Notes: generated by a model not told the origin, from the sequence alone. A stretch of DNA of 64,000 nucleotides from an uncultured Nitrospiraceae bacterium (GCA_964586075.1 CAZPGZ010000017.1:755-64754), one strand, 5' to 3'; counted from the first letter of the stretch, positions 2,828-16,914 are shown. Numbers and translations: made by a program.

Positions 2828-4003
2828 CTATCGTGTAGAATAGTAGGCTCTTTTTGCTTCTTCCATAATCTGTTTCAGCGGGAGCTGTTCGCTTTCCGCG
2901 ATTTTTTTGCAGTCCTCATATTCAGGGGTCACCGTGAAAACTTCCTTGCCCTGTTTGCTCACTTTCAGCCTGATTCTGCCGTAGCATGTGTCCACTTCCG
3001 TGATTTCACGGAGCAGCTTTTTTCTGCGCACATCCTGGAGGCGGACGCCGATGCTCGTGGTTTCGCGAAACAGGGTATCAAGCATGGTGTCGACTTTTTC
3101 CTTGTCCGTCAGCACGGATAGCAGCACCGCCGGCCTTCCTTTTTTCATGGTGATGGGCGTGAAGTATACGTCTTGCGCCCCCTGCCGCATAAGTTTTTCA
3201 GCCACGTAGTCGTAAATCTGGGGGTTCATATCGTCGATATTGGTCTCGATGACAACCGACATGTCTTCTTCCCAGGAGGATGCGGCGGATTCACCAATCA
3301 TAAGCCGCAGGACATTCGGTGTGCCGGGGAAATCCTGGTCTCCTGCTCCGTAGGCTATCCGCTCAATATTCATGGCCGGCATGCGGCCGAAGGAGGCGCC
3401 GAGCGTGCTGATGATCGCCGCGCCGGTGGGGGTCGTAAGCTCAAATTTTGTCGAAGATTCATAAAAGGGGATTCCCCGCAGCATCTCAGCGGTTGCCGGG
3501 GCGGGTATGGGCAGAATGCCGTGAGCGGTTTTCACTGTTCCGGAACCCACGTTGACCGTAGAAGCGATGATATGCGATATGCCCAGAAGTTCAAGCCCTA
3601 TAACCGAGCCCACTATATCAACAATAGAGTCGACCGCACCGACCTCATGGAAATGAACGTCCTCTATCGTTGTGCCATGCACTTTGGCTTCCGCCTCCGC
3701 CAGACGGGTAAATATCAGTCCGCTTTTTTGTTTGACCGGCGCTGAGAGAGAAGAACTGCCGATAATTTTCAGAATGTCGGAAAGGTGGCGATGTTCGTGT
3801 GTAAGATGATGAATATCGACTCGCACTTTCGTCGCCGCAATGCCGGAGCGGGTGACTTTTTCAGATGTTATTTTGTATCCTGGAACGCTCAGTTTCTGAA
3901 GCTCCGAGCGAAGTGTGTTGATGTCCATTCCCGCGTCCACAAGGGCGCCGAGGGTCATATCGCCGGATATCCCGGAAAAACAGTCAAAATAGGCAATGGT
4001 CAT
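2828..4003 (-). CDS. larC: Nickel-pincer cofactor biosynthesis protein LarC (DUF111, nickel insertase)
   Basis: 391 aa; N-terminus MTIAYFDCFSGISGDM characteristic of LarC/DUF111. Confidence 0.8.
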   Translation of the reverse strand: MTIAYFDCFSGISGDMTLGALVDAGMDINTLRSELQKLSVPGYKITSEKVTRSGIAATKVRVDIHHLTHEHRHLSDILKIIGSSSLSAPVKQKSGLIFTRLAEAEAKVHGTTIEDVHFHEVGAVDSIVDIVGSVIGLELLGISHIIASTVNVGSGTVKTAHGILPIPAPATAEMLRGIPFYESSTKFELTTPTGAAIISTLGASFGRMPAMNIERIAYGAGDQDFPGTPNVLRLMIGESAASSWEEDMSVVIETNIDDMNPQIYDYVAEKLMRQGAQDVYFTPITMKKGRPAVLLSVLTDKEKVDTMLDTLFRETTSIGVRLQDVRRKKLLREITEVDTCYGRIRLKVSKQGKEVFTVTPEYEDCKKIAESEQLPLKQIMEEAKRAYYSTR

Positions 4004-4032
4004 GGATAGTATCCCTTTAATGGCGAGTTGTG

Positions 4033-4806
4033 TTATGCGCTACCGTCTGATGCATGCTCACCGAGCAGATTTATCCTGTGAGCCAGAACGCCTGCGCCAA
4101 AGCCGTTGTCTATGTTCATCACGGCAATGCCTGAAGCGCAAGAGTTGAGCATGGTAAGAAGAGGCGCCAGACCCTGGAACCCCGCACCGTATCCCACGCT
4201 GGTAGGAACTGCGATCACCGGCTTGTCTACCAGGCCGCCAACCACGGACGGAAGTGCACCGTCCATGCCGGCGACTACAACGACAACGCGGGCCTCATCA
4301 AGGATGTCGCGCTTGCTCAATACACGGTGGATGCCGGCGACGCCCACATCATAGACGGTTTTTACCGCGCTGCCGAGTGCTTCTGCCGTGACCGCAGCCT
4401 CCTCAGCCACAGGAATATCCGACGTCCCGCCGGTCATGATCAAGACGATGCCTTTGGTCAGCGTTGTTTTCGTTTGTCGGACAACAATCGCGCGGGAGCG
4501 TTCGTGGTACACGGCATGGCGGTTCAGTTTTTTTATTGCTTTATACATTTTATCAGATGCGCGTGTCGCGAGAACATCGCTTTTATGAGCCAGCATACGT
4601 TTTGCAATGCCCGCGACCTGTTCAGTTGTTTTTCCTTCACAATAGATGACTTCCGGCATCCCGTGTCGCAACTGCCGGTGATGGTCGATGTGCGCGTAGA
4701 CGACGTCTTCAAACGGCAAATGCCTGAGCTGTCTGAGTGCGGTCTCTACTTCGGTTTTCCCGTCGCGAACGTTCTGAAGCAGTTTCATGAGGTCTGATTT
4801 ATTCAT
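4033..4806 (-). CDS. larB: Nickel-pincer cofactor biosynthesis protein LarB (PurE-like NaAD carboxylase/hydrolase)
   Basis: 257 aa; PurE/AIR-carboxylase-like fold with N-terminal extension, adjacent to larC. Confidence 0.75.
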   Translation of the reverse strand: MNKSDLMKLLQNVRDGKTEVETALRQLRHLPFEDVVYAHIDHHRQLRHGMPEVIYCEGKTTEQVAGIAKRMLAHKSDVLATRASDKMYKAIKKLNRHAVYHERSRAIVVRQTKTTLTKGIVLIMTGGTSDIPVAEEAAVTAEALGSAVKTVYDVGVAGIHRVLSKRDILDEARVVVVVAGMDGALPSVVGGLVDKPVIAVPTSVGYGAGFQGLAPLLTMLNSCASGIAVMNIDNGFGAGVLAHRINLLGEHASDGSA

Positions 4807-7106: not shown

Positions 7107-8804
7107 ATGCATGCATGGCACGGAAAAATACTTTATGTCGATCTCTCTGCAAACAAGATCCGGACCGAGAGTTTAGACGCGGAGGCCCTTTCTTCTCATA
7201 TCGGCGGCAGGGGGCTCGGTATGGCTATGATGAAGGATTACTTCAGCCTCGACCCCTTTGACAACAGCATGCCTCTTCTTTTTATGAACGGGCCACTGTG
7301 CGGCACCCCTGCGCCCGCCTCGTCTCGATTGGCCGTGGTCTCGCGGTCGCCTCTTACCGGAACAATAACCGATTCATCGGTGGGCGGTACCTTTCCACTC
7401 CGTTTGAAGGCAGCCGGCTACGATGGTCTCTGCATTACCGGCAGGGCTCCGTCTCCGGTCTATCTTCAGATCGTTGAGGACAAGGTCGAGATCCACGACG
7501 CGTCGTACCTTTGGGGCAAGGGGTGTCTGGAAACAAACAGGCTTCTTGACTCCGCCGGTTGCGTGGCCTGCATCGGCCCCGCGGGAGAAAACCGAGTCCG
7601 GTTCGCCAATATCATGATCGGCGGCGCGAATTCCGCTGGACGGGGCGGACTCGGCGCCGTAATGGGATCAAAGAACCTCAAAGCGATCGTGCTTAATGGA
7701 ACCCGAAAAGTGTCTGTCGCGGATTCAGCCGCATTTAAAAAGGCGCAGGAAGATGTAATGCGGCTTCTGAGAGCATCACCGGCGGTCATGGGGGAACTGG
7801 GGTTGGGTGAATATGGGACCGCGATGCTCGTAGATATCGTGGGCCAGCGCAAGATGGCTCCAACGGAAAACTTCCAGAAGACTTTTTTCCCGCAGGCGGC
7901 CGCGTATTCCGGTCCGAGTCTCAAAAAAGAATTCGGCTATAAAAAGCACGGATGTGTTGTATGTCCCATCCAGTGTAAAAAGATGCTCTCCTGCGGCAGG
8001 CCTCTGCCGGAATATGAGACCCTGTCTCATTTCGGCGCCTTGAACGCAAACGCCGACGCAGAATCCATTGTAGAGGCAAATTTGCTGTGCAACAATCTTG
8101 GAATGGACACCATCTCCGCGGCGGCGACGTTCGCGGCATTTGGAGAAGTACGGGGCGCGTTTCTTTCCGGAAACGAGATACTCGAAATGCTCCTGCGGAC
8201 CGCGAAGCGCGAGGGTGAGGGAGACCGGCTGGCGGAAGGCTCAAAAAGGCTGTGTGCAGACTTGGGAAAACCGCATTGTTCCATGAGCGTGAAGGGGCTG
8301 GAGCTTCCCGCCTACGATCCGCGCGGTTCCTACGGCATTGCGCTAGCCTATGCCACGTCCACGCGCGGCGGCTGCCATTTGCGCGCGTATCCGATCAGCC
8401 AGGAAATTCTGCGCAAACCCGTGGCGGTGGACCGCTTCAGCTTTGACGGAAAGGCCCGGATGATCAAAATCGCGGAGGACAACAATGCGATGGTGGACTC
8501 CCTCTGCGTGTGCGCATTCGCTTTTCTCGGCGCATCCATTGAGGAATATGCTCATTTGCTGGCCGCAGCAACGGGGCTGCCGTTCTCGGGACAGGGTCTT
8601 ATGAAAATCGGTGAGAAAATCGTCATTACCGAACGAACATACAACACTAGGAACGGATTCACCAAAAAAGATGACTTTCTGCCTGAACGGTTTTATACCG
8701 AGGCAGGTTCATCGGGAGAAGGGATCGAAATTCCGCCGATCGACAAAAAACGGTTCAGTGAAGAGCTGGATAAATACTATCGAATTCGGGGAGAGAATCC
8801 ATGA
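7107..8804 (+). CDS. aor: Tungsten-containing aldehyde:ferredoxin oxidoreductase (AOR family)
   Basis: N-terminus WHGKILYVDLS...E..GGRGLG typical of AOR; ~565 aa; start trimmed to internal ATG. Confidence 0.82.
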   Translation: MHAWHGKILYVDLSANKIRTESLDAEALSSHIGGRGLGMAMMKDYFSLDPFDNSMPLLFMNGPLCGTPAPASSRLAVVSRSPLTGTITDSSVGGTFPLRLKAAGYDGLCITGRAPSPVYLQIVEDKVEIHDASYLWGKGCLETNRLLDSAGCVACIGPAGENRVRFANIMIGGANSAGRGGLGAVMGSKNLKAIVLNGTRKVSVADSAAFKKAQEDVMRLLRASPAVMGELGLGEYGTAMLVDIVGQRKMAPTENFQKTFFPQAAAYSGPSLKKEFGYKKHGCVVCPIQCKKMLSCGRPLPEYETLSHFGALNANADAESIVEANLLCNNLGMDTISAAATFAAFGEVRGAFLSGNEILEMLLRTAKREGEGDRLAEGSKRLCADLGKPHCSMSVKGLELPAYDPRGSYGIALAYATSTRGGCHLRAYPISQEILRKPVAVDRFSFDGKARMIKIAEDNNAMVDSLCVCAFAFLGASIEEYAHLLAAATGLPFSGQGLMKIGEKIVITERTYNTRNGFTKKDDFLPERFYTEAGSSGEGIEIPPIDKKRFSEELDKYYRIRGENP

Positions 8805-9289
8805 CCGGGAAAAAACAGATTCGAAGAAGTCCGTCTGCCGGAGAGAAGGCGGTCGGCTGCTTCAAGAACGGCTTCAACTGTTCCCAGTCGGTGCTGTATG
8901 CGTATGGTCCGCGGCTCGGGCTCAACCGCGCACAGTCGCTGAAAGTCGCTTGCGCGTTCGGCGGAGGCATGGCACGCCGCGGCGATACCTGCGGAGCGGT
9001 AACCGGTGCGCTGATGGTGCTGGGGCTGAAGCACGGAAAAACAAAAAAGGGCGATGACGCGGCACGGGAAAAAACATACGATTTGGTGAAGGAATTTATA
9101 GCGGAATTTTCCGCCAGGAACGGCTCCATCGTATGCCGGGAATTGCTGGGGCACGATATCAGCGTTCCGAAAGGCCGCGAGGCGGCAAAAAATGAGCTGC
9201 TTTTTGAGACGCTCTGCCCCGGGCTGGTGCAGGACTCGGTTGAAATTCTCGAGAAACAGCTGCATAAAACACGGTCCAAGAAAACGTGA
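8801..9289 (+). CDS. C_GCAxxG_C_C family putative redox-active protein
   Basis: 162 aa; GCFKNGFNCSQSVL...CAFGGGMA...CGAVTGA motifs of the C-GCAxxG-C-C family; ATGA overlap with aor stop. Confidence 0.7.
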   Translation: MTGKKQIRRSPSAGEKAVGCFKNGFNCSQSVLYAYGPRLGLNRAQSLKVACAFGGGMARRGDTCGAVTGALMVLGLKHGKTKKGDDAAREKTYDLVKEFIAEFSARNGSIVCRELLGHDISVPKGREAAKNELLFETLCPGLVQDSVEILEKQLHKTRSKKT

Positions 9290-9316
9290 GCATCACGGTT
9301 CGCACGAGGAGACGCG

Positions 9317-9538
9317 CTACGGCTGTTCCTGGATCAGGACCGCAATTGACTTTATTATCAGCAGAGCCCATGGCGTTCCGTGCAGTATAAGATCAAACCA
9401 GTCAAGAGGCCGCGTGAGCTTTCCCTGAAAAAGCATCAACAGCTTTTCCCAGATATGCGGTGGATTGAAGGGTGCAAGGCCCAGGGTGAGGCAGAGGAGA
9501 ATCAGTATCCCCCACGGTATTTTTGATAAGACTTCCAT
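9317..9538 (-). CDS. Small hydrophobic membrane protein, unknown function
   Basis: 74 aa from internal ATG with AAGGA RBS; one predicted TM helix (ILILLCLTLGLAPF); no family recognised. Confidence 0.35.
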   Translation of the reverse strand: MEVLSKIPWGILILLCLTLGLAPFNPPHIWEKLLMLFQGKLTRPLDWFDLILHGTPWALLIIKSIAVLIQEQP

Positions 9539-9592: not shown

Positions 9593-10429
9593 TCACGAGA
9601 GCTGGTCGAACAGGCTGCCCATTGATCGCTGCGCATCGCACTCCTGTCTCCACGACACGCATTGCAGGAACGGATCCGCACCCCATTTTTTTTTAAAAAA
9701 AGTGACGCCCGGATCAATTCCTAAACCCAGGTTCACATATTGCTTGCCTTCTACCCGCGCATGCTCGATGATGTGCGCGAGCAGCAGGTCGGAGGCGCCC
9801 GGTACGTAGTGTCTGTGCGAGCGGAAATTGAACATATAAAACGCATAATGGCGCGCGCCGAACTCGGCGATATCGAAAGCGACCAGATTGCCGCAGGTGT
9901 TGCGCGCTTCGAAAACGACCGCGGTGTCGCACTTGGCATAGTTGGGTACACGCTTGAAAATGAACCGCTGAGCTTCATCAAGGGAATGTGTGCGCATGAA
10001 GGTTCTGAGCATCCATTTGTGCGACCAGCGGACCTTTCCGATGGAAACGGATATTTCGCGGCGTGCGCGCTTCAGCATGTTTTCTGTTTTCTTCGGGATG
10101 GTCGATTGAGACAGATCGAGGCGATAGTACGCATCAAGAGGTGCGGGCGTGAAATCATCGGGCGGAGCAGTAAGGGGGGGCGCGATAATAGAAAAAGAGT
10201 CAGGCACAAAACGCTCTTTTGCCCCATCGAGCGCTTTCAGCATTCTCGATTCATCAGCGCCTCCGGACAATGGATAGCCGACGAAAATCAAATGCGTCCC
10301 GGCAACATGGACGACAAAATCGTCGGCTAAAAACGGCTCGGTTTGTGAGATCGTGGTGACATAATGCGGGAGGTGTTCAGGCACATATGCCTGTTCGATG
10401 ATATATCCCTGTTCTTCCGGTGTAATCAT
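9593..10429 (-). CDS. FemAB/BioF2-like GNAT-fold protein (Acetyltransf_6-like), paralog A
   Basis: C-terminal NLGLG...FFKKKWGA motif typical of CelD/FemAB-like GNAT proteins; start ATG overlaps upstream TGA (ATGA). Confidence 0.5.
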   Translation of the reverse strand: MITPEEQGYIIEQAYVPEHLPHYVTTISQTEPFLADDFVVHVAGTHLIFVGYPLSGGADESRMLKALDGAKERFVPDSFSIIAPPLTAPPDDFTPAPLDAYYRLDLSQSTIPKKTENMLKRARREISVSIGKVRWSHKWMLRTFMRTHSLDEAQRFIFKRVPNYAKCDTAVVFEARNTCGNLVAFDIAEFGARHYAFYMFNFRSHRHYVPGASDLLLAHIIEHARVEGKQYVNLGLGIDPGVTFFKKKWGADPFLQCVSWRQECDAQRSMGSLFDQLS

Positions 10430-11256
10430 GAGGACACCTGCGTAACGGCGTATCCTGCGTCGCGGAATAGGCTGGTCACCCCGGGTACATGAGGAAAACC
10501 GACAAAAGCAAGAGCATCCTCGCATGCGAAAACCGGCCGGATCCGCTCATAAAGAACTCGGTCGCGCGCCGCGAGCGCGGCGCCGCGCGCGGCAAAACGT
10601 GCTGTCAAGTCCATTATTGTATCCAGATCGCCGTCGAGGTACATCTTGACATACTTATTTTTGTAATCAGGCCAGTTCGCGACATCGTTCAATTGCCGCG
10701 CGAGGCGGTCTAAGGGAATTTTATCAAGCACATCAAGCTGCTCTTCGAGCGTTTCTAGAAAGCAGAGTTTTTTTCCGGCCGCCCGGGCGATCCGGTATGC
10801 TTCCATGTCAACTGAGTGATTCCAGTCGAGGTACGTACGCCAGATCGCAAAAAACGCGGCCCAGGGACGCACCCCGCGCGTGAATGAATCGAAGTAAACT
10901 GGCCCCTTTTCCTCCAATGACAGGAGCCACGTGTCTCCTGTTCTCCCCAGTCCGTCACGCTCGCGCAGAATGCAGTCAATCACAGTAATTGCTTCGGGCG
11001 TGAGGAGATCGAGAAACGCCTGATTATTTCCGTCATGTCTTCCGTGCTCTGCAATTCTCCCGAAACTTGCCTCATCGAGCGGGCCTTCGAACATCACGGT
11101 CGAAACGTTACGGACCAGGCGCTTCAGCGGTTTGCGAAAGCTGTATGGAAAAAAATGAGCCGTACCTACGAGATGCGACGCCTGCCCGTTTTTCTCCACG
11201 CGCCAGATCATGCGAAGCGGTTTATGCATTGTCCAGGGGAAAAGCTTCATTTTCAT
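10426..11256 (-). CDS. TraB/GumN family protein
   Basis: VGTAHFFPYSF...VMFEGPLDE motifs of pfam01963 TraB/PrgY/GumN; start trimmed to MKMKLFPW. Confidence 0.6.
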   Translation of the reverse strand: MKMKLFPWTMHKPLRMIWRVEKNGQASHLVGTAHFFPYSFRKPLKRLVRNVSTVMFEGPLDEASFGRIAEHGRHDGNNQAFLDLLTPEAITVIDCILRERDGLGRTGDTWLLSLEEKGPVYFDSFTRGVRPWAAFFAIWRTYLDWNHSVDMEAYRIARAAGKKLCFLETLEEQLDVLDKIPLDRLARQLNDVANWPDYKNKYVKMYLDGDLDTIMDLTARFAARGAALAARDRVLYERIRPVFACEDALAFVGFPHVPGVTSLFRDAGYAVTQVSS

Positions 11257-11276
11257 ACACGGTAATTGTTTGCGAT

Positions 11277-12197
11277 TTACGGTTTCCCGTCCAAGAGCGC
11301 GCCAAGCAGGGAAATCGGCGCCGGAGGTCCATAATAACATTCGCAGAATTCGTAATGCAAGTACGGTCTGCCGCCCCATTTTGCTTTAAAGCGACGAATG
11401 CCTTCGTTAACACCCAGACCCAGGTTGATACTTTGTTTGCCGCGGTCCCGCGCGGAATCGATCATGTCGGCAAAGAGCAGATCAGAGGCGTGTGGTATAT
11501 AGTTTTTTTTGGAATGGCATCCCAGCACATACGCGTCAAATTGTTCAGCCGCGGTCTCGACAATAAAAAAAGCAGCTAGTGTGCCGTGCCGGCTTCGTGC
11601 GTTCAACACCTGCGCTGTTTTGCATTGAGCTATGTAGTCGGGCATGGACCGGTACAACTCTTTAATCATGAGGGGAAGGTCCTCTCGGCTCTCCAGTTCT
11701 TTTGCCAGTTGTTCATGCTCGCGCGTGAATGCTCGCGTGCGCTCTATGGTCAGTGTCCGGGCTGCCTGGTCCACTTTGCACTGCAAGGCTGAGGGAATAA
11801 TTGACTGCGAGATATCGAGTCGCAGATATTGATCGCTCTGGCGCACGCGACAAGATTTGGCAAGCGAAGGAGGTATTTCAGGACCGATAAACCAGAAATA
11901 ATCGGAATTGTGCTGATCGCGAACCTGTTTGATCAGTTTGTCGCAGGCGCTTGCTATAAACGGCGCCTGGAGAGGATATCCGATAAAAATCAGCCAATCG
12001 TCTTTCGCTAAGCAGAGATGATCTTCGATGAAAAAAGGCTCGGCGTGTGAAATTGCCGCCATCAGAGAAGGGATCTGCTCCGGTACACAGGCATGCGCCA
12101 GGGCGAAGCGTTCATTAATCGGATTGAGCGGAGGATGGTCGCAACGGTCCATTGGTTTTAGCTCGATTCTGTTCGCATACGCGAGGGCTGCGTACAC
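11277..12197 (-). CDS. FemAB/BioF2-like GNAT-fold protein (Acetyltransf_6-like), paralog B
   Basis: Collinear similarity to paralog A (CVPEQIP/YVPEHLP, FIGYPL/FVGYPL, YLRLDISQS/YYRLDLSQS, NLGLGV..RRFKAKWGG); alternative start ATG at 12152. Confidence 0.5.
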   Translation of the reverse strand: MYAALAYANRIELKPMDRCDHPPLNPINERFALAHACVPEQIPSLMAAISHAEPFFIEDHLCLAKDDWLIFIGYPLQAPFIASACDKLIKQVRDQHNSDYFWFIGPEIPPSLAKSCRVRQSDQYLRLDISQSIIPSALQCKVDQAARTLTIERTRAFTREHEQLAKELESREDLPLMIKELYRSMPDYIAQCKTAQVLNARSRHGTLAAFFIVETAAEQFDAYVLGCHSKKNYIPHASDLLFADMIDSARDRGKQSINLGLGVNEGIRRFKAKWGGRPYLHYEFCECYYGPPAPISLLGALLDGKP

Positions 12198-12379: not shown

Positions 12380-14038
12380 TTACTGGTCAGCGCTTTTTTG
12401 CCTGATCTCGACCCTGCGTATTTTGCCGCTGATCGTTTTGGGAAGCGCGGGAACAAACTCGATGATGCGTGGATATTTATAAGGTGCGGTGACTTTTTTT
12501 ACGTGCTCCTGCAGTTCATGCACAAGCTTGTCACTGGGCGAATATCCTTTGGCCAGCACGACGCTTGCCTTGACCACCTGCCCTCGTACCGGATCGGGAG
12601 CGCCGGTGATGGCGCATTCGAGCACTGCGGGGTGTTCATGCAGCGCGCTTTCGACTTCGAACGGACCGATTGCATATCCGGAGCTTTTTATGAGGTCGTC
12701 CGCCCGGCCGACAAACCAATAGTAGCCATCTTCGTCTTTCCATGCCATATCGCCGGTATAGTAGATTCCGTCATGCCAGGCGCCTTTTGTGCGCTCCAGG
12801 TCGCGGTAGTATCCGCCGAACATGCCGACCGGCTTGCGTGCGTTGGTACGGACTACAATCTGTCCTTCCTTGCCGATGCCGCAGGAGTTTCCATCTTCGT
12901 CCAGGAGGTCGATGTCATACCAGGGAGACGGTTTTCCCATGGACCCCGGCTTTGGCTGCATCCACGGAAAGGTGGCGATTGCGGCGGTCATTTCCGTTTG
13001 TCCGTAACCTTCCATCAGCCGGATTCCGGTTGCGTTCAGAAATTGGGAATAGACTTCGGGGTTTAATGGTTCGCCGGCGACAACACAGTACTGCAGGCTG
13101 CTGAAATCGTATTTTGAAAGGTCTTCCTTGATAAAGAAACGATAAACCGTGGGCGGCGCACAGAATGTGGTAATTTTGTACTTCACGATAACATCAAGAA
13201 GCTTCTTGGGATCGAACTTATCGTAGTCATAAATAAATACGGTGGAGCCTGCAAGCCATTGGCCGTATATTTTGCCCCAGACTGCCTTTGCCCATCCCGT
13301 ATCGGCGACGGTAAAGTGGAGCCCGTCTTTCCGGACGTTCTGCCAGTATTTGGCAGTAAGAATATGGCCGAGGGGGTAGGTAAAGTCATGCTGCACCATC
13401 TTCGGCATTCCGGTTGTTCCGGAAGTAAAATAGAGAAGCGAGATGTCTTCGTTTGCGTTCGCGTCGGCGCCGGTCGGACGCTCGACATGTTCGGACGCGT
13501 GTTCCACTTCCGTATTAAAATTCAGCCATCCGTCGCGGTTTCCATTGACTAGGGCTTTCAGCTTCAGGGTGGGGGATTGAGCTTCAGATTTCTCGACATG
13601 TTCGATGACGAGAGGATCCGATACGCTTACGATCATCTTGACATCGGCTGCATTGTTGCGGTAGATGATGTCTTTGTGGGTGAGAAGGTGCGTGGCCGGG
13701 ATGCAAATTGCGCCGATTTTGTGAAGGGCAAGAAGGCAGAACCAGAACTCATAGCGCCTTTTGAGAATAAGCATCACGGGGTCGCCCTTGCGGATGCCGT
13801 GCGACAGGAAAAAGTTTGTGGCTTTATTGGCGTAGTGCTTTAATTGGGCAAACGTAAACTCAGCCCTGTTCCCATTTTCATCGCACCAGACCAAGGCGAT
13901 TTTCTGCGGCTGTCTAGCTGCTATATCATCCACGACATCAAAGGCAAAATTGAAATGCTCCGGCACCATGATGCGGAAATTTTGAATAAAATCGTCATAC
14001 GAACTGAAATCTATTTTCGAAAGAAATTGGTTAAGCAT
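12380..14038 (-). CDS. AMP-forming acyl-CoA synthetase (medium-chain/acetyl-CoA synthetase-like)
   Basis: 552 aa; [13 protein letters not shown]-binding motif, adenylate-forming domain architecture. Confidence 0.8.
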
Positions 14039-14464: not shown

Positions 14465-14650
14465 ATGTACAAGGTAACAGTAGACAATGGGAAGTGCGAC
14501 GGCGACGGCGTCTGCGCGGATGTGTGCCCGCAGAACGTGTTCGAAGTCAAAAATAACAAGGCTGTTCCGGTGAATATGGCTGACTGCATCAACTGCGAAG
14601 CCTGCGTTGAGGGCTGCCCGCAGAAGGCCATTACAATCACTGAAGAATAA
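14465..14650 (+). CDS. fdx: 2x[4Fe-4S] ferredoxin
   Basis: 61 aa; two CxxCxxCxxxCP motifs (CDGDGVCADVCP, CINCEACVEGCP); strong RBS. Confidence 0.8.
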   Translation: MYKVTVDNGKCDGDGVCADVCPQNVFEVKNNKAVPVNMADCINCEACVEGCPQKAITITEE

Positions 14651-14744: not shown

Positions 14745-15518
14745 TTATTTTTTTTCGAGCAGCTTTTGAAATGCGGAAATAAGATCAATAGGCAACGGGA
14801 AAATAATGGTTGAATTTTTCTCCGAAGCGATTTCAGTAAGGGTCTGCAGATACCGGAGTTGCAGGGTCGTGGGGTTCTGGCTGATTACGTTAGCAGCATC
14901 GGAGAGTTTGGAAGAGGCCTGGAGTTCGCCTTCGGCGTGGATGACCTTTGCGCGGCGTTCGCGTTCTGCCTGAGCCTGAATGGCGATGGCGCGCTGCATT
15001 TCCGCAGGCAGATCCACGTTTTTCACTTCCACGGTTGTTACCTTCACGCCCCACGGCTCTGTCTGCAGATCAATCACCTTCTGGAGCTCTGCGTTTATTG
15101 CCTCGCGGTTTGAGAGGAGGTCGTCCAGGGCGTTCTGGCCCAGCACGCTTCTGAGCGACGTTTGCGAGATGAGCGAGGTCGCGTAATAAAAATCCTCCAC
15201 TTCGACGATTGCCTTGCGCGGGTCGATGACTCTGAAGTAAACCACAGCATTCACTTTTACGGTGACATTGTCTTTCGTGATCACGTCCTGGGCCGGCACA
15301 TCCATGGTCACGGTCCGCAGGCTGACACGCACCATTTTTTGTATTCCCGGCCACAGAAGAATAAGGCCTGGGCCCTTTACGCCGTGTTCCACGCTCACTT
15401 TGCCGAGCGTGAAAATGACTCCCCGTTCGTATTGCTTCAGAATTTTTACAATGTTGTACAGAACCATGACGAAGAGTATTATCAGAAATAAAAAACCCAT
15501 CCCCACAAACTGAAACAT
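14745..15518 (-). CDS. SPFH/band-7 (stomatin/slipin-like) membrane protein
   Basis: N-terminal TM helix then band-7 domain ([18 protein letters not shown]). Confidence 0.8.
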
Positions 15519-15564
15519 ACGAAGCCTCCTTTAGTGTTTTTCCTGATTGATTGAACGATTGTTG

Positions 15565-16914
15565 CTATGCGCTCTTTTTTACTTTTAACTTCAGTCCTTC
15601 GAGGGCCACGACGGTTACTTTTTCACCCTGCCGGATCGGCTCGTCGCTCCATGCGCTCCAGTATTCCCCCCGCAGGAACACCTGTCCGTCTGCATGGATG
15701 TCGGTTTTTGCCGTTGCCTGCATATCAATAAGCCCTTCTTTGCCGGTGTCCGGTTTTTCCCGGTACACGCGCACCGCAACGGTAACCGTGATGATGAATA
15801 GCACGGCAGACACGATCACAACGGGAATGATGACCGCCCAGGATATCTGAAGAGCGGGTGATGCGGAATCAATGAGCATGATTGATCCAAAGAGCATGGA
15901 AATGACACCTCCGACTCCTAAAACGCCATGGCTTGTTATGAAGGCCTCCGCAATGAACAACCCGATGCCGAGAATGATGAGCATAAGACCTGCATAATTA
16001 ATGGGGAGCGTGTGCAGGGCGTAGAAGGCAAGAATCAGGCAGATGGCGCCCGCCACACCAGGAAAAACAGAACCAGGGTTCGAAAGCTCGAAATAAAGAC
16101 CGTAGAAACCGAGGATCATGAGGATGTAGGCGATATTAGGGTTGCTGATAATTTCCAGAAGGCGGTATCGGAAGCCCATTGTGATTTCCTTTACTTCCGC
16201 GCCTTCGGTCACAAGCGTCTTTTTGCCAAGGGCCACATCGACGGTTTTTCCATTGATAGCTTTAATGAGTGAAGGAATGTCGGGAGCAATCAGGTCTACA
16301 ACTTTATCTTTGATAGCTTCTGTTTCAGTTATGGACACGCTTTCCCGCACGGCCTCTTCTGCCCATTTGACGTTCCTTCCCCGCTTTTCGGCAATGCCCC
16401 TCACCATGGCAGCAAGATCGTTTACCGCTTTTTTCTCCATGGTTTTGTCCATTTTTCCTTCCACCTGCACCGGGTGCGCCGCGCCGATGTGCGTAGTCGG
16501 AGCCATGGCCGCTATGTTTGCCGAAAGCGTGATAAAAACACCTGCCGATGCTGCCCGCGCACCGGAAGGTGCGACATACACCACGATGGGGACTTCGGAC
16601 GCCATCATTTTGATGATAATCTGGAGGGTAGAGTCGACAAGACCTCCCGGAGTGTTCAACTGAATGATGAGAGCCTCGGCTTTTGCCTTGGCGGCGGTGT
16701 CAATGGAGGACCCGATGTATTCCGCCACCACCGGCGTGATCGGTGCGTCTATCTTGATCAGGTATATTGTTTTCTGCTGGGTCGGAGCAGCGGTCGCAGG
16801 TGCGGCATCTTTTTTTGTTTCAGCTTTTTCAATGGAGTATGAGATTCCTACGGCACCGGCAAAAAGCATGGCGAAAAAAGCGACAAACAGCAGGGTTTTG
16901 AAGGATTTTTTCAT
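15565..16914 (-). CDS. NfeD-family membrane-bound ClpP-class serine protease (stomatin operon partner)
   Basis: 449 aa; signal peptide, ClpP-like domain, C-terminal TM segments and OB-fold; immediately upstream of stomatin gene. Confidence 0.78.
   Translation of the reverse strand: MKKSFKTLLFVAFFAMLFAGAVGISYSIEKAETKKDAAPATAAPTQQKTIYLIKIDAPITPVVAEYIGSSIDTAAKAKAEALIIQLNTPGGLVDSTLQIIIKMMASEVPIVVYVAPSGARAASAGVFITLSANIAAMAPTTHIGAAHPVQVEGKMDKTMEKKAVNDLAAMVRGIAEKRGRNVKWAEEAVRESVSITETEAIKDKVVDLIAPDIPSLIKAINGKTVDVALGKKTLVTEGAEVKEITMGFRYRLLEIISNPNIAYILMILGFYGLYFELSNPGSVFPGVAGAICLILAFYALHTLPINYAGLMLIILGIGLFIAEAFITSHGVLGVGGVISMLFGSIMLIDSASPALQISWAVIIPVVIVSAVLFIITVTVAVRVYREKPDTGKEGLIDMQATAKTDIHADGQVFLRGEYWSAWSDEPIRQGEKVTVVALEGLKLKVKKSA

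Follow-up and report, generated by a model that had tools for sequence, protein, structure and literature searches.

A conserved gene cassette couples two paralogous Fem/DUF2156-like tandem-GNAT proteins, probably aminoacyl-tRNA dependent, to a TraB/GumN-family hydrolase

A 64,000-nucleotide (nt) stretch of DNA from an uncultured Nitrospiraceae bacterium (GCA_964586075.1 CAZPGZ010000017.1:755-64754, here called the window) carries on its minus strand, at 9593-12197, three co-directional genes, identified by open reading frame (ORF) calling and by reading of the sequence: gnatA, a TraB/GumN gene, and gnatC. These genes form a cassette that is found in at least six bacterial phyla. On balance, and with slightly better than even confidence, we propose that they encode a cytoplasmic multi-enzyme machine, in which two Fem/DUF2156-type transferases, probably dependent on aminoacyl-tRNA, and a Tiki-type hydrolase act on one shared acceptor. 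The folds of the components are known, while the two GNAT families are without a curated model and the cassette is uncharacterised.

The gnatA gene (11277-12152) encodes an A-type tandem-GNAT protein of 291 amino acids (aa), the TraB gene (10426-11256) a soluble hydrolase of 276 aa that belongs to the TraB/PrgY/GumN family (PF01963) of the Tiki superfamily, and gnatC (9593-10429) a C-type tandem-GNAT protein of 278 aa, both GNAT proteins being Fem/DUF2156-like. The start of gnatA was placed at the Met at 12152 because the family consensus supports that residue; the longest ORF opens with a GTG at 12197 and would give 306 aa. The longest ORF for TraB would begin at 11379, inside gnatA, and its start was placed at 11256 because homologs of 274 aa begin at the Met of MKMKLF. 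With the gnatA stop codon TAA at 11279-11277 and the TraB ATG at 11256-11254, the spacer between them reads as 20 nt (11257-11276). An initial annotation of this DNA had described a tightly coupled three-gene operon, and the ORFs and the sequence bear this out; it was right that the gap upstream of TraB is short, but gave its length as 21 nt. It had also noted that the TraB stop overlaps the start of the downstream GNAT gene, and this overlap of TGA with ATG is found as ATGA at 10429-10426, so that the genes are translationally coupled. The spacer between gnatA and TraB contains no terminator-like and no convincing promoter-like site. Ratios of nonsynonymous to synonymous substitution rates, calculated against the nearest relative (locus L006), are 0.29 for gnatA, 0.16 for TraB and 0.22 for gnatC, and indicate purifying selection on all three.

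The distribution of the cassette was analysed using one genome per species, which yielded about 190 relatives of gnatC, and 81 loci were taken into the locus analysis. The hosts belong to Nitrospirota/Thermodesulfovibrionia, Chloroflexota (Anaerolineae), Nitrospinota, Desulfobacterota (Syntrophales, Syntrophorhabdus, Desulfarculaceae), and Leptospirales and other Spirochaetota, together with one actinobacterium. The window itself is closest to a Nitrospirota metagenome-assembled genome (MAG), at 78-90% amino-acid identity, and sequence conservation across phyla is high, at 50-65%. The family of cassette GNAT proteins is small: among 1.84 billion representatives, 542 clusters at 50% identity reach an E-value of 1e-3. 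No match to the cassette was found on plasmids. One MAG (binchicken_co20_223) holds two copies (L007 and L008), whose gnatC genes are 77% and 75% identical to that of the window; this represents either two cassettes per genome or two strains binned together.

The triad is strongly conserved: 65 of the 81 loci have its three genes side by side, and the flanks are unrelated between lineages. The remaining loci are mostly interrupted by contig ends. The order within the 65 intact loci is A-TraB-C in 54 (two of them with a second TraB), C-A-TraB or A-C-TraB in seven, and convergent in four, and the permuted cassettes always keep one A-type and one C-type copy. The 4-nt overlap between TraB and gnatC is present in 39 of the 54 A-TraB-C loci measured. 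Apart from the radical-SAM gene described below, no further operon member is conserved. We give practically no credence to the view that the adjacency is fortuitous and the genes independent: it is refuted by the conservation of the cassette amid unrelated flanks, by the conserved overlap, and by multiple independent gene fusions.

Some of these fusions involve a fourth gene. In 34 of the 81 loci (about 40%) the gene right behind the triad encodes a radical S-adenosylmethionine (radical-SAM) protein with a SPASM domain, about 367 aa long. This gene often has a 4-nt overlap, and it remains attached to the triad in the permuted gene orders. The 64-kb window itself contains no homolog. The best NCBIfam scores of this protein are for TIGR04317 (171.7 bits against a cut-off of 380), the tungsten cofactor oxidoreductase radical-SAM maturase, and for TIGR04311 (153 bits against 400), a putative metalloenzyme maturase. 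It is counted as a member of neither, because both scores fall far below the cut-offs. Fusions of gnatA to TraB occur in L069, L076, L081, L083, P0438 and P0441, and of gnatC to the radical-SAM gene in P0472, P0453 and P0501, while in P0365 and P0390 gnatA, TraB and gnatC form a single polypeptide of 890-910 aa. In L088 and L089 the radical-SAM gene comes next after such a triple fusion, and in L090 the entire system consists of two polypeptides, A-TraB and C-radical SAM. Taken together the fusions link all four parts, a classical Rosetta-stone indication that these form a complex with a single substrate. Neither the radical-SAM partner nor the fusions figured in the initial annotation.

Two other arrangements are worth recording. 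In two Nitrospirota loci (L040 and L055) the order is A-TraB-C-TraB-radical SAM, with a separate TraB gene behind each of the two GNAT genes, which suggests a one-to-one pairing of TraB and GNAT subunits. Immediately behind the cassette, an Anaerolineales MAG (L003, 5240-5788) encodes a small GNAT N-acetyltransferase of the conventional kind (Acetyltransf_1/3), and one of the same type directly follows the cassette in the triple-fusion loci (L088, 11857-12324; L089, 10756-11244). It might serve to cap an added amino group.

The two GNAT proteins were analysed further. GnatA and GnatC had been put forward as paralogs, and they align with 33% identity over 259 aa (BLASTP, E 3e-47), their family profiles matching over 265 columns with E 1.3e-65; as judged by sequence comparison, the relationship is far beyond chance. 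All of the motifs originally named are present, both those in the GNAT pair (CVPEQIP/YVPEHLP, FIGYPL/FVGYPL, YLRLDISQS/YYRLDLSQS, NLGLG...FKxKWG) and those in TraB (VGTAHFFP, MFEGPLDE). Homologs of GnatA (n=1166) are mostly 283-291 aa long and none has a Pfam assignment, whereas many of those of GnatC (n=1227) have precomputed matches to PF09924 (LPG_synthase_C). An NCBIfam scan of the three cassette proteins gave nothing relevant, and sequence searches of the PDB, using the single proteins, the GnatC profile and the C-terminal motif segment, gave no meaningful match.

The AlphaFold2 model of GnatC (predicted local distance difference test, pLDDT, 87.9) consists of two α/β domains. Its best match in Foldseek is FemX of Weissella viridescens (FemX_Wv; E 1.6e-12, template modelling (TM) score 0.65), and the other top matches include 2hqy, the catalytic domains of L-PGS, A-PGS and MprF, Sbb17 (E 1.2e-10) and Sba18. 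These top matches span approximately 250-330 columns with a probability of 1.00. Ranks 1 to 25 are all aminoacyl-tRNA-dependent tandem-GNAT transferases, with the exception of ranks 5 and 8, which are both 2hqy, a Bacteroides protein of unknown function. Tandem GNATs that use acetyl-CoA (2wpw, VipF, MAB_4324) appear lower in the list, with E-values from 1e-9 to 1e-7. The tandem-GNAT fold is thus present in GnatC according to the model, and GnatA aligns with GnatC over 265 columns. The tandem-GNAT model fully covers the 278 and 291 residues of the two proteins, and neither has a hydrophobic N-terminal extension that could form a membrane or flippase domain. The original assignment of the pair as FemABX/DUF2156-type tandem GNATs is therefore upheld by the Foldseek matches to FemX, aaPGS, MprF and Sbb17, together with the PF09924 matches of orthologs and borderline Pfam scores.

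Residues invariant in both families comprise VPE(H), GYP, DxYxRL, one His, SDLL, NLGLG and F-K-x-K-W-G; in GnatA (alignment A3) these correspond to VPE, GYP, D107, H146, SD(223-224)LL, NLGLG and F255-K256-x-K-W-G. In GnatC the invariant pair F245-K246 is located in the helix after β5 of domain 2 of the model. In sequence the Phe-Lys pair of both paralogs resembles the catalytic pairs of FemX (F304-K305) and DhpH-C (F328-K329) (PMC12945691). GnatC also has a conserved, strongly basic helix at residues 113-125, whose net charge averages +4.1 across 30 homologs and in which K114 and R121 are invariant. On the basis of the top Foldseek matches, the invariant Phe-Lys pair and the basic helix, we consider that the donor is probably an aminoacyl-tRNA.

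A number of observations weigh against this reading and against the wider proposal. The equation of K246 and K256 with K305 of FemX, and of the basic helix with the tRNA-binding helix of FemX and aaPGS, is drawn from motif and secondary-structure position. The counterpart of the basic helix in GnatA is weaker, with a mean net charge of +2.6, and GnatA of the window has Cys125-Lys126 (codon 125 at approximately 11778-11780) where nearly all homologs have Arg-Glu, Cys125 being a lineage-specific change at a near-invariant position of the helix. The Foldseek TM scores for GnatC are moderate (0.55-0.66), with root-mean-square deviations of 5-8 Å. Matches to Pfam are below threshold: GnatC scores 21.5 bits with PF13480 (Acetyltransf_6; gathering score 22) and 14.9 bits with PF09924 (E 0.014; gathering score 27.5), the sole match of GnatA is to PF13480 (E 0.17, 12.5 bits), and neither protein matches PF02388 (FemAB). 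The TraB model has no informative neighbour in the PDB. No tRNA or aminoacyl-tRNA synthetase gene was found linked to the cassette, and no precursor-like or acceptor-candidate ORF next to it is conserved across phyla.

The main rival to an aminoacyl-tRNA donor is an acyl-CoA donor. The GNAT proteins would then be acyl-CoA or acetyl-CoA acyltransferases, their donor made by the neighbouring synthetase and ferredoxin, with TraB as a deacylase or regulator. Most of the GNAT superfamily is indeed acyl-CoA dependent, and acetyl-CoA tandem GNATs do occur in the Foldseek list, although the best fold matches are tRNA-dependent enzymes, and the FK motif and basic helix suit the Fem type. GnatA moreover reads PHASD where GnatC reads PGASD, and so is without the Gly of the GNAT pyrophosphate-binding loop. 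In the window an AMP-forming acyl-CoA synthetase (AMP-binding ligase, 12383-14038) lies on the same strand 180-230 nt upstream of the triad, and the initial annotation suggested that this enzyme and a ferredoxin supply the donor. However, only four of the 81 loci have the synthetase close to the triad, three of them from the lineage of the window and the fourth from Thermodesulfovibrio sp. N1, and the closest genome has a gene for a sensor kinase of 891 aa between it and gnatA. The synthetase was ruled out as a functional partner on these grounds of conservation, and the suggestion of a donor from the adjacent genes is not supported. The ferredoxin is a small 2x[4Fe-4S] protein of 61 aa, encoded in the window at 14465-14647 on the plus strand. 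Five loci belonging to two phyla (the window, L036, L039, L071 and L072) encode such a protein, of very similar sequence (MY[KQV]VTVD..KCDG.G.C), a short distance upstream of the cassette, which speaks for this rival. Taking both sides together, we regard an acyl-CoA donor as unlikely.

The middle gene was attributed to the TraB/PrgY/GumN family, and the protein does match PF01963 with E 4.3e-28 (99.3 bits against a cut-off of 26.8) over profile positions 2-263 of 263. The AlphaFold2 model has a pLDDT of 88. Invariant in 30 homologs (alignment A2) are G31-T-A-H34, E57 (within FEGPLD) and G253-F-P-H256, and the His and Glu residues are also kept in the fusion proteins. Active TIKI/Ere enzymes have a set of two His and two Glu residues, which activates water and hydrolyses esters and peptide bonds (PMC6254334). 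By sequence the TraB residues match the His/Glu catalytic set of these active members, with one Glu (E57) placed.

We therefore return to the tRNA-dependent machine proposed above, and suggest how it could work. GnatA and GnatC are ancient paralogs, and their double-GNAT fold is that of FemX, of the MprF/aaPGS catalytic domain and of Sbb17. Most likely each would take an activated amino acid from aminoacyl-tRNA and pass it on to the shared acceptor, at a hydroxyl or an amino group, and by analogy with FemX, FemA and FemB the two may act at successive positions. TraB, as a putatively competent His/Glu hydrolase of the Tiki/erythromycin-esterase type that is physically associated with the transferases, would cleave this same substrate at an ester or peptide bond, whether in preparing the acceptor, in releasing the product or in reversing the modification. 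The radical-SAM/SPASM enzyme would be a fourth component working on this substrate in about 40% of loci, the window having the three-gene form. Candidates for the acceptor are a protein or peptide, a small metabolite or cofactor, and a lipid. The aminoacyl-tRNA donor, the role of the hydrolase, and the order and direction of the steps are what we infer here. A role in peptide or lipid-headgroup modification, as first suggested for these genes, is plausible.

A narrower rival is that the system serves lipid aminoacylation and its homeostasis, in the manner of aaPGS with AhyD or VirJ, or of fungal ErdS with ErdH, with soluble DUF2156-type enzymes that aminoacylate a membrane lipid and TraB as an esterase that removes the added group. 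This would fit the PF09924 matches of orthologs, the presence of L-PGS, A-PGS and MprF among the top folds, and the fact that the Tiki/Ere superfamily includes esterases; operons of aaPGS with a hydrolase are also well established (PMC6103681). A gene for GpsA lies nearby in the window, but it is a lineage-specific neighbour only. Three further features are hard to accommodate. Transmembrane and flippase domains are missing from all three proteins, aaPGS systems do not employ a pair of paralogous transferases, and the radical-SAM/SPASM partner, with its fusion to gnatC, is difficult to reconcile with head-group homeostasis. We consider this explanation improbable, and somewhat more so than an acyl-CoA donor.

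Toxin-antitoxin or anti-phage defence functions were also considered, in which the GNAT proteins would be toxins acting on aminoacyl-tRNA and TraB the antidote or sensor. GNAT toxins that acetylate aminoacyl-tRNA do exist, and the phyletic distribution of the cassette is patchy, which suggests horizontal transfer. Against this, the double-GNAT Fem-type fold is unlike that of the single-domain GNAT toxins, fusion to a radical-SAM enzyme is atypical of toxin-antitoxin systems, and the cassette combines its high cross-phylum conservation with purifying selection. None of the three proteins has a match in PADLOC at E up to 1, there is no plasmid match, and the flanks are mostly housekeeping or metabolic genes. 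At one locus (L001, 1-3955, from a Candidatus Aquidulcis MAG) the triad does stand beside DarT-Macro (DarTG-like) and DEAD-helicase/HNH/MZB genes, a neighbourhood that looks like a defence island and favours this explanation, but it is not seen at other loci. A defence role is thus very improbable and, like chance adjacency, essentially excluded.

Within the tRNA-dependent proposal, a more specific possibility, which we put forward tentatively, is that the cassette belongs to an unrecognised tRNA-dependent biosynthetic or maturation pathway. A short aminoacyl or peptidyl appendage would be built by the two Fem-like transferases on a carrier (a protein, peptide or cofactor precursor), remodelled by the radical-SAM/SPASM enzyme, and released or trimmed by the Tiki-like hydrolase. 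Such a pathway would be functionally analogous to the logic of PEARL/pearlin or mycofactocin, with entirely different enzyme families. A classical cluster for a ribosomally synthesised and post-translationally modified peptide (RiPP), with an adjacent precursor, is unsupported, because no small ORF next to the cassette is conserved across phyla; the recurrent small ORFs are only the ferredoxin and lineage-specific ones. No ATP-grasp enzyme accompanies the cassette. The neighbouring genes hint that the product of the pathway could serve the metallo- or sulfur-cofactor enzymes of anaerobes, the neighbours in question being AFOR and ferredoxin, LarA/LarB/LarC, NifS/NifU, rhodanese and sulfite-reductase-like genes.

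In the window, a gene for an aldehyde:ferredoxin oxidoreductase (AFOR, a tungsten enzyme family) and one for a C_GCAxxG_C_C protein (7122-9286, plus strand) are convergent to the triad. About 5 kb from the triad on the minus strand, at 2831-4806 and 1057-2775, are genes for LarC (Ni_insertion, E 2.6e-153) and for an AIRC protein resembling LarB, beside a glutamine-dependent NAD synthase. LarB and LarC are genes of the nickel-pincer nucleotide cofactor. Counted without phylogenetic correction, AFOR genes occur within a few kb of the cassette in seven loci from two phyla, including the window and the deltaproteobacterial L039, L045, L065 and L071, and LarA, LarB or LarC near the cassette in about ten loci from Nitrospirota, Desulfobacterota and Spirochaetota; LarA or LarC flanks the cassette in other phyla in L022/L086, L024, L032, L076, L081, L083 and L087. 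A YeiH-like transporter gene is found near the cassette in Desulfobacterota and some Nitrospirota, and Desulfobacterota cassettes are also near rhodanese, cytochrome, sulfite-reductase-like, NifS and NifU genes. These neighbours, which recur more often than we had anticipated, hint at a link between the cassette and metallo- or sulfur-cofactor enzymes, and we treat them as leads rather than as evidence.

In two Desulfobacterota loci (L086, 7366-11314; L087, 10150-13929) the four-gene cassette stands beside a conserved block on the opposite strand, which encodes a YeiH-like transporter (Cons_hypoth698) whose N-terminal extension is rich in Lys, one or more rhodaneses, a 342-aa multihaem cytochrome and a 65-aa protein. 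A sigma-54 response regulator often accompanies this block.

Downstream of the triad in the window, 54 nt after gnatC, is an ORF on the same strand (9317-9538) for a small hydrophobic protein of 73 aa (MEVLSKIPWGILILLCLTLGLAPFNPPHIWEKL...), which may be co-transcribed with gnatC. It has no Pfam match, and its tblastn hits come only from L005-L008, the nearest Nitrospirota relatives. As a small membrane protein confined to close relatives, it was ruled out as a core component of the cassette. It is followed on its 3' side by a terminator-like hairpin and T-run (9285-9297, minus strand), identified as a consensus match only, which is possibly the end of the operon. This hairpin is the only site above background in the promoter and terminator scan, and a search with Rfam found no riboswitch or leader between 8.5 and 15 kb of the window. 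Further upstream of the triad, at 14745-16914 on the minus strand, is a pair of Band_7/stomatin-like and NfeD-like genes, with Pfam assignments taken from the orthologous locus L005. This pair is ordinary membrane-protein quality control, unrelated to the cassette.

To our knowledge, transferases that use aminoacyl-tRNA outside translation are few: the Fem enzymes, MprF, the L/F-transferase and a handful of natural-product enzymes. Past discoveries of such transferases opened up chemistry in cell-wall biology, antibiotic resistance and natural products. The cassette defines two new and tightly conserved Fem/DUF2156-like families, tied to a Tiki-type hydrolase and in many cases also to a radical-SAM enzyme, in poorly studied syntrophic and subsurface anaerobes, and the fusions predict a multi-enzyme complex with one substrate. 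The identity of this substrate could reveal a new modification of a protein, cofactor or lipid, and would for the first time place a soluble bacterial TraB/GumN protein in a defined biochemical context.

The literature searched (TraB/GumN together with DUF2156, FemAB, GNAT or aminoacyl-tRNA) contains no description of the cassette or of its fusions; the survey of acetyltransferase-like peptide ligases by Iyer et al. (2009) lay outside this search. With NCBIfam and PADLOC also negative, no curated family, defence model or paper was found for the cassette, and the initial remark that this is not a characterised operon still holds. Comparison with known systems is nevertheless instructive. The cassette GNAT proteins have the double-GNAT fold of the FemABX/GNAT-fold transferases (FemX_Wv, FemA, MurM, VlmA, DhpH-C, PacB, Orf11 and Sbb17/Sba18), and resemble the FemABX type in a C-terminal motif of the G-x-x-F-K-x-K-[WF]-G kind, where the Lys is invariant, and in a basic helix of domain 2 that may be equivalent. 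FemX, FemA and FemB are moreover paralogs that act in series, as could be the case for GnatA and GnatC. On the other hand, the identity to FemABX proteins is only 14-17%, there is no PF02388 match, and the cassette proteins are shorter (278-291 aa) and do not have the coiled-coil of FemA. They occur in Gram-negative-type and Chloroflexota anaerobes, and have no link to cell-wall genes. Their pairing with a TraB hydrolase is obligatory, and a radical-SAM enzyme often joins them.

A second group of relatives is formed by MprF and aaPGS (DUF2156, PF09924), which many orthologs of GnatC match in Pfam and whose L-PGS, A-PGS and MprF members are among the top folds. Genes for aaPGS are found in operons with the hydrolases AhyD, VirJ or PesT (PMC6103681). 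The cassette thus follows the same transferase-plus-hydrolase logic as aaPGS with AhyD, VirJ/AcvB or PesT and as fungal ErdS/ErdH. It differs in that a membrane or flippase domain is missing, the transferases are a pair of paralogs, a radical-SAM protein can take part, and the hydrolase has the Tiki/TraB fold rather than an α/β hydrolase or VirJ fold, and the window proteins score below the PF09924 threshold.

The hydrolase itself is a PF01963 member with the GxxH...E...GxxH pattern, and so belongs with the TIKI/TraB/PrgY/GumN proteins (Tiki1/2, PrgY, RRSP and the erythromycin esterases). Unlike PrgY, TraB and Tiki it is soluble and without their membrane anchor, and its fusion or coupling to GNAT transferases is a context without earlier description. 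Tiki/TraB proteins co-occur with SPASM proteins in predicted peptide-modification (RiPP-like) loci of graspetide branch 2 (PMC8939145). The cassette shares with these loci the combination of Tiki/TraB with SPASM, but differs in having neither an ATP-grasp enzyme nor a precursor peptide gene. Its radical-SAM protein scores best with the TIGR04317 and TIGR04311 maturases, yet stands apart from both families.

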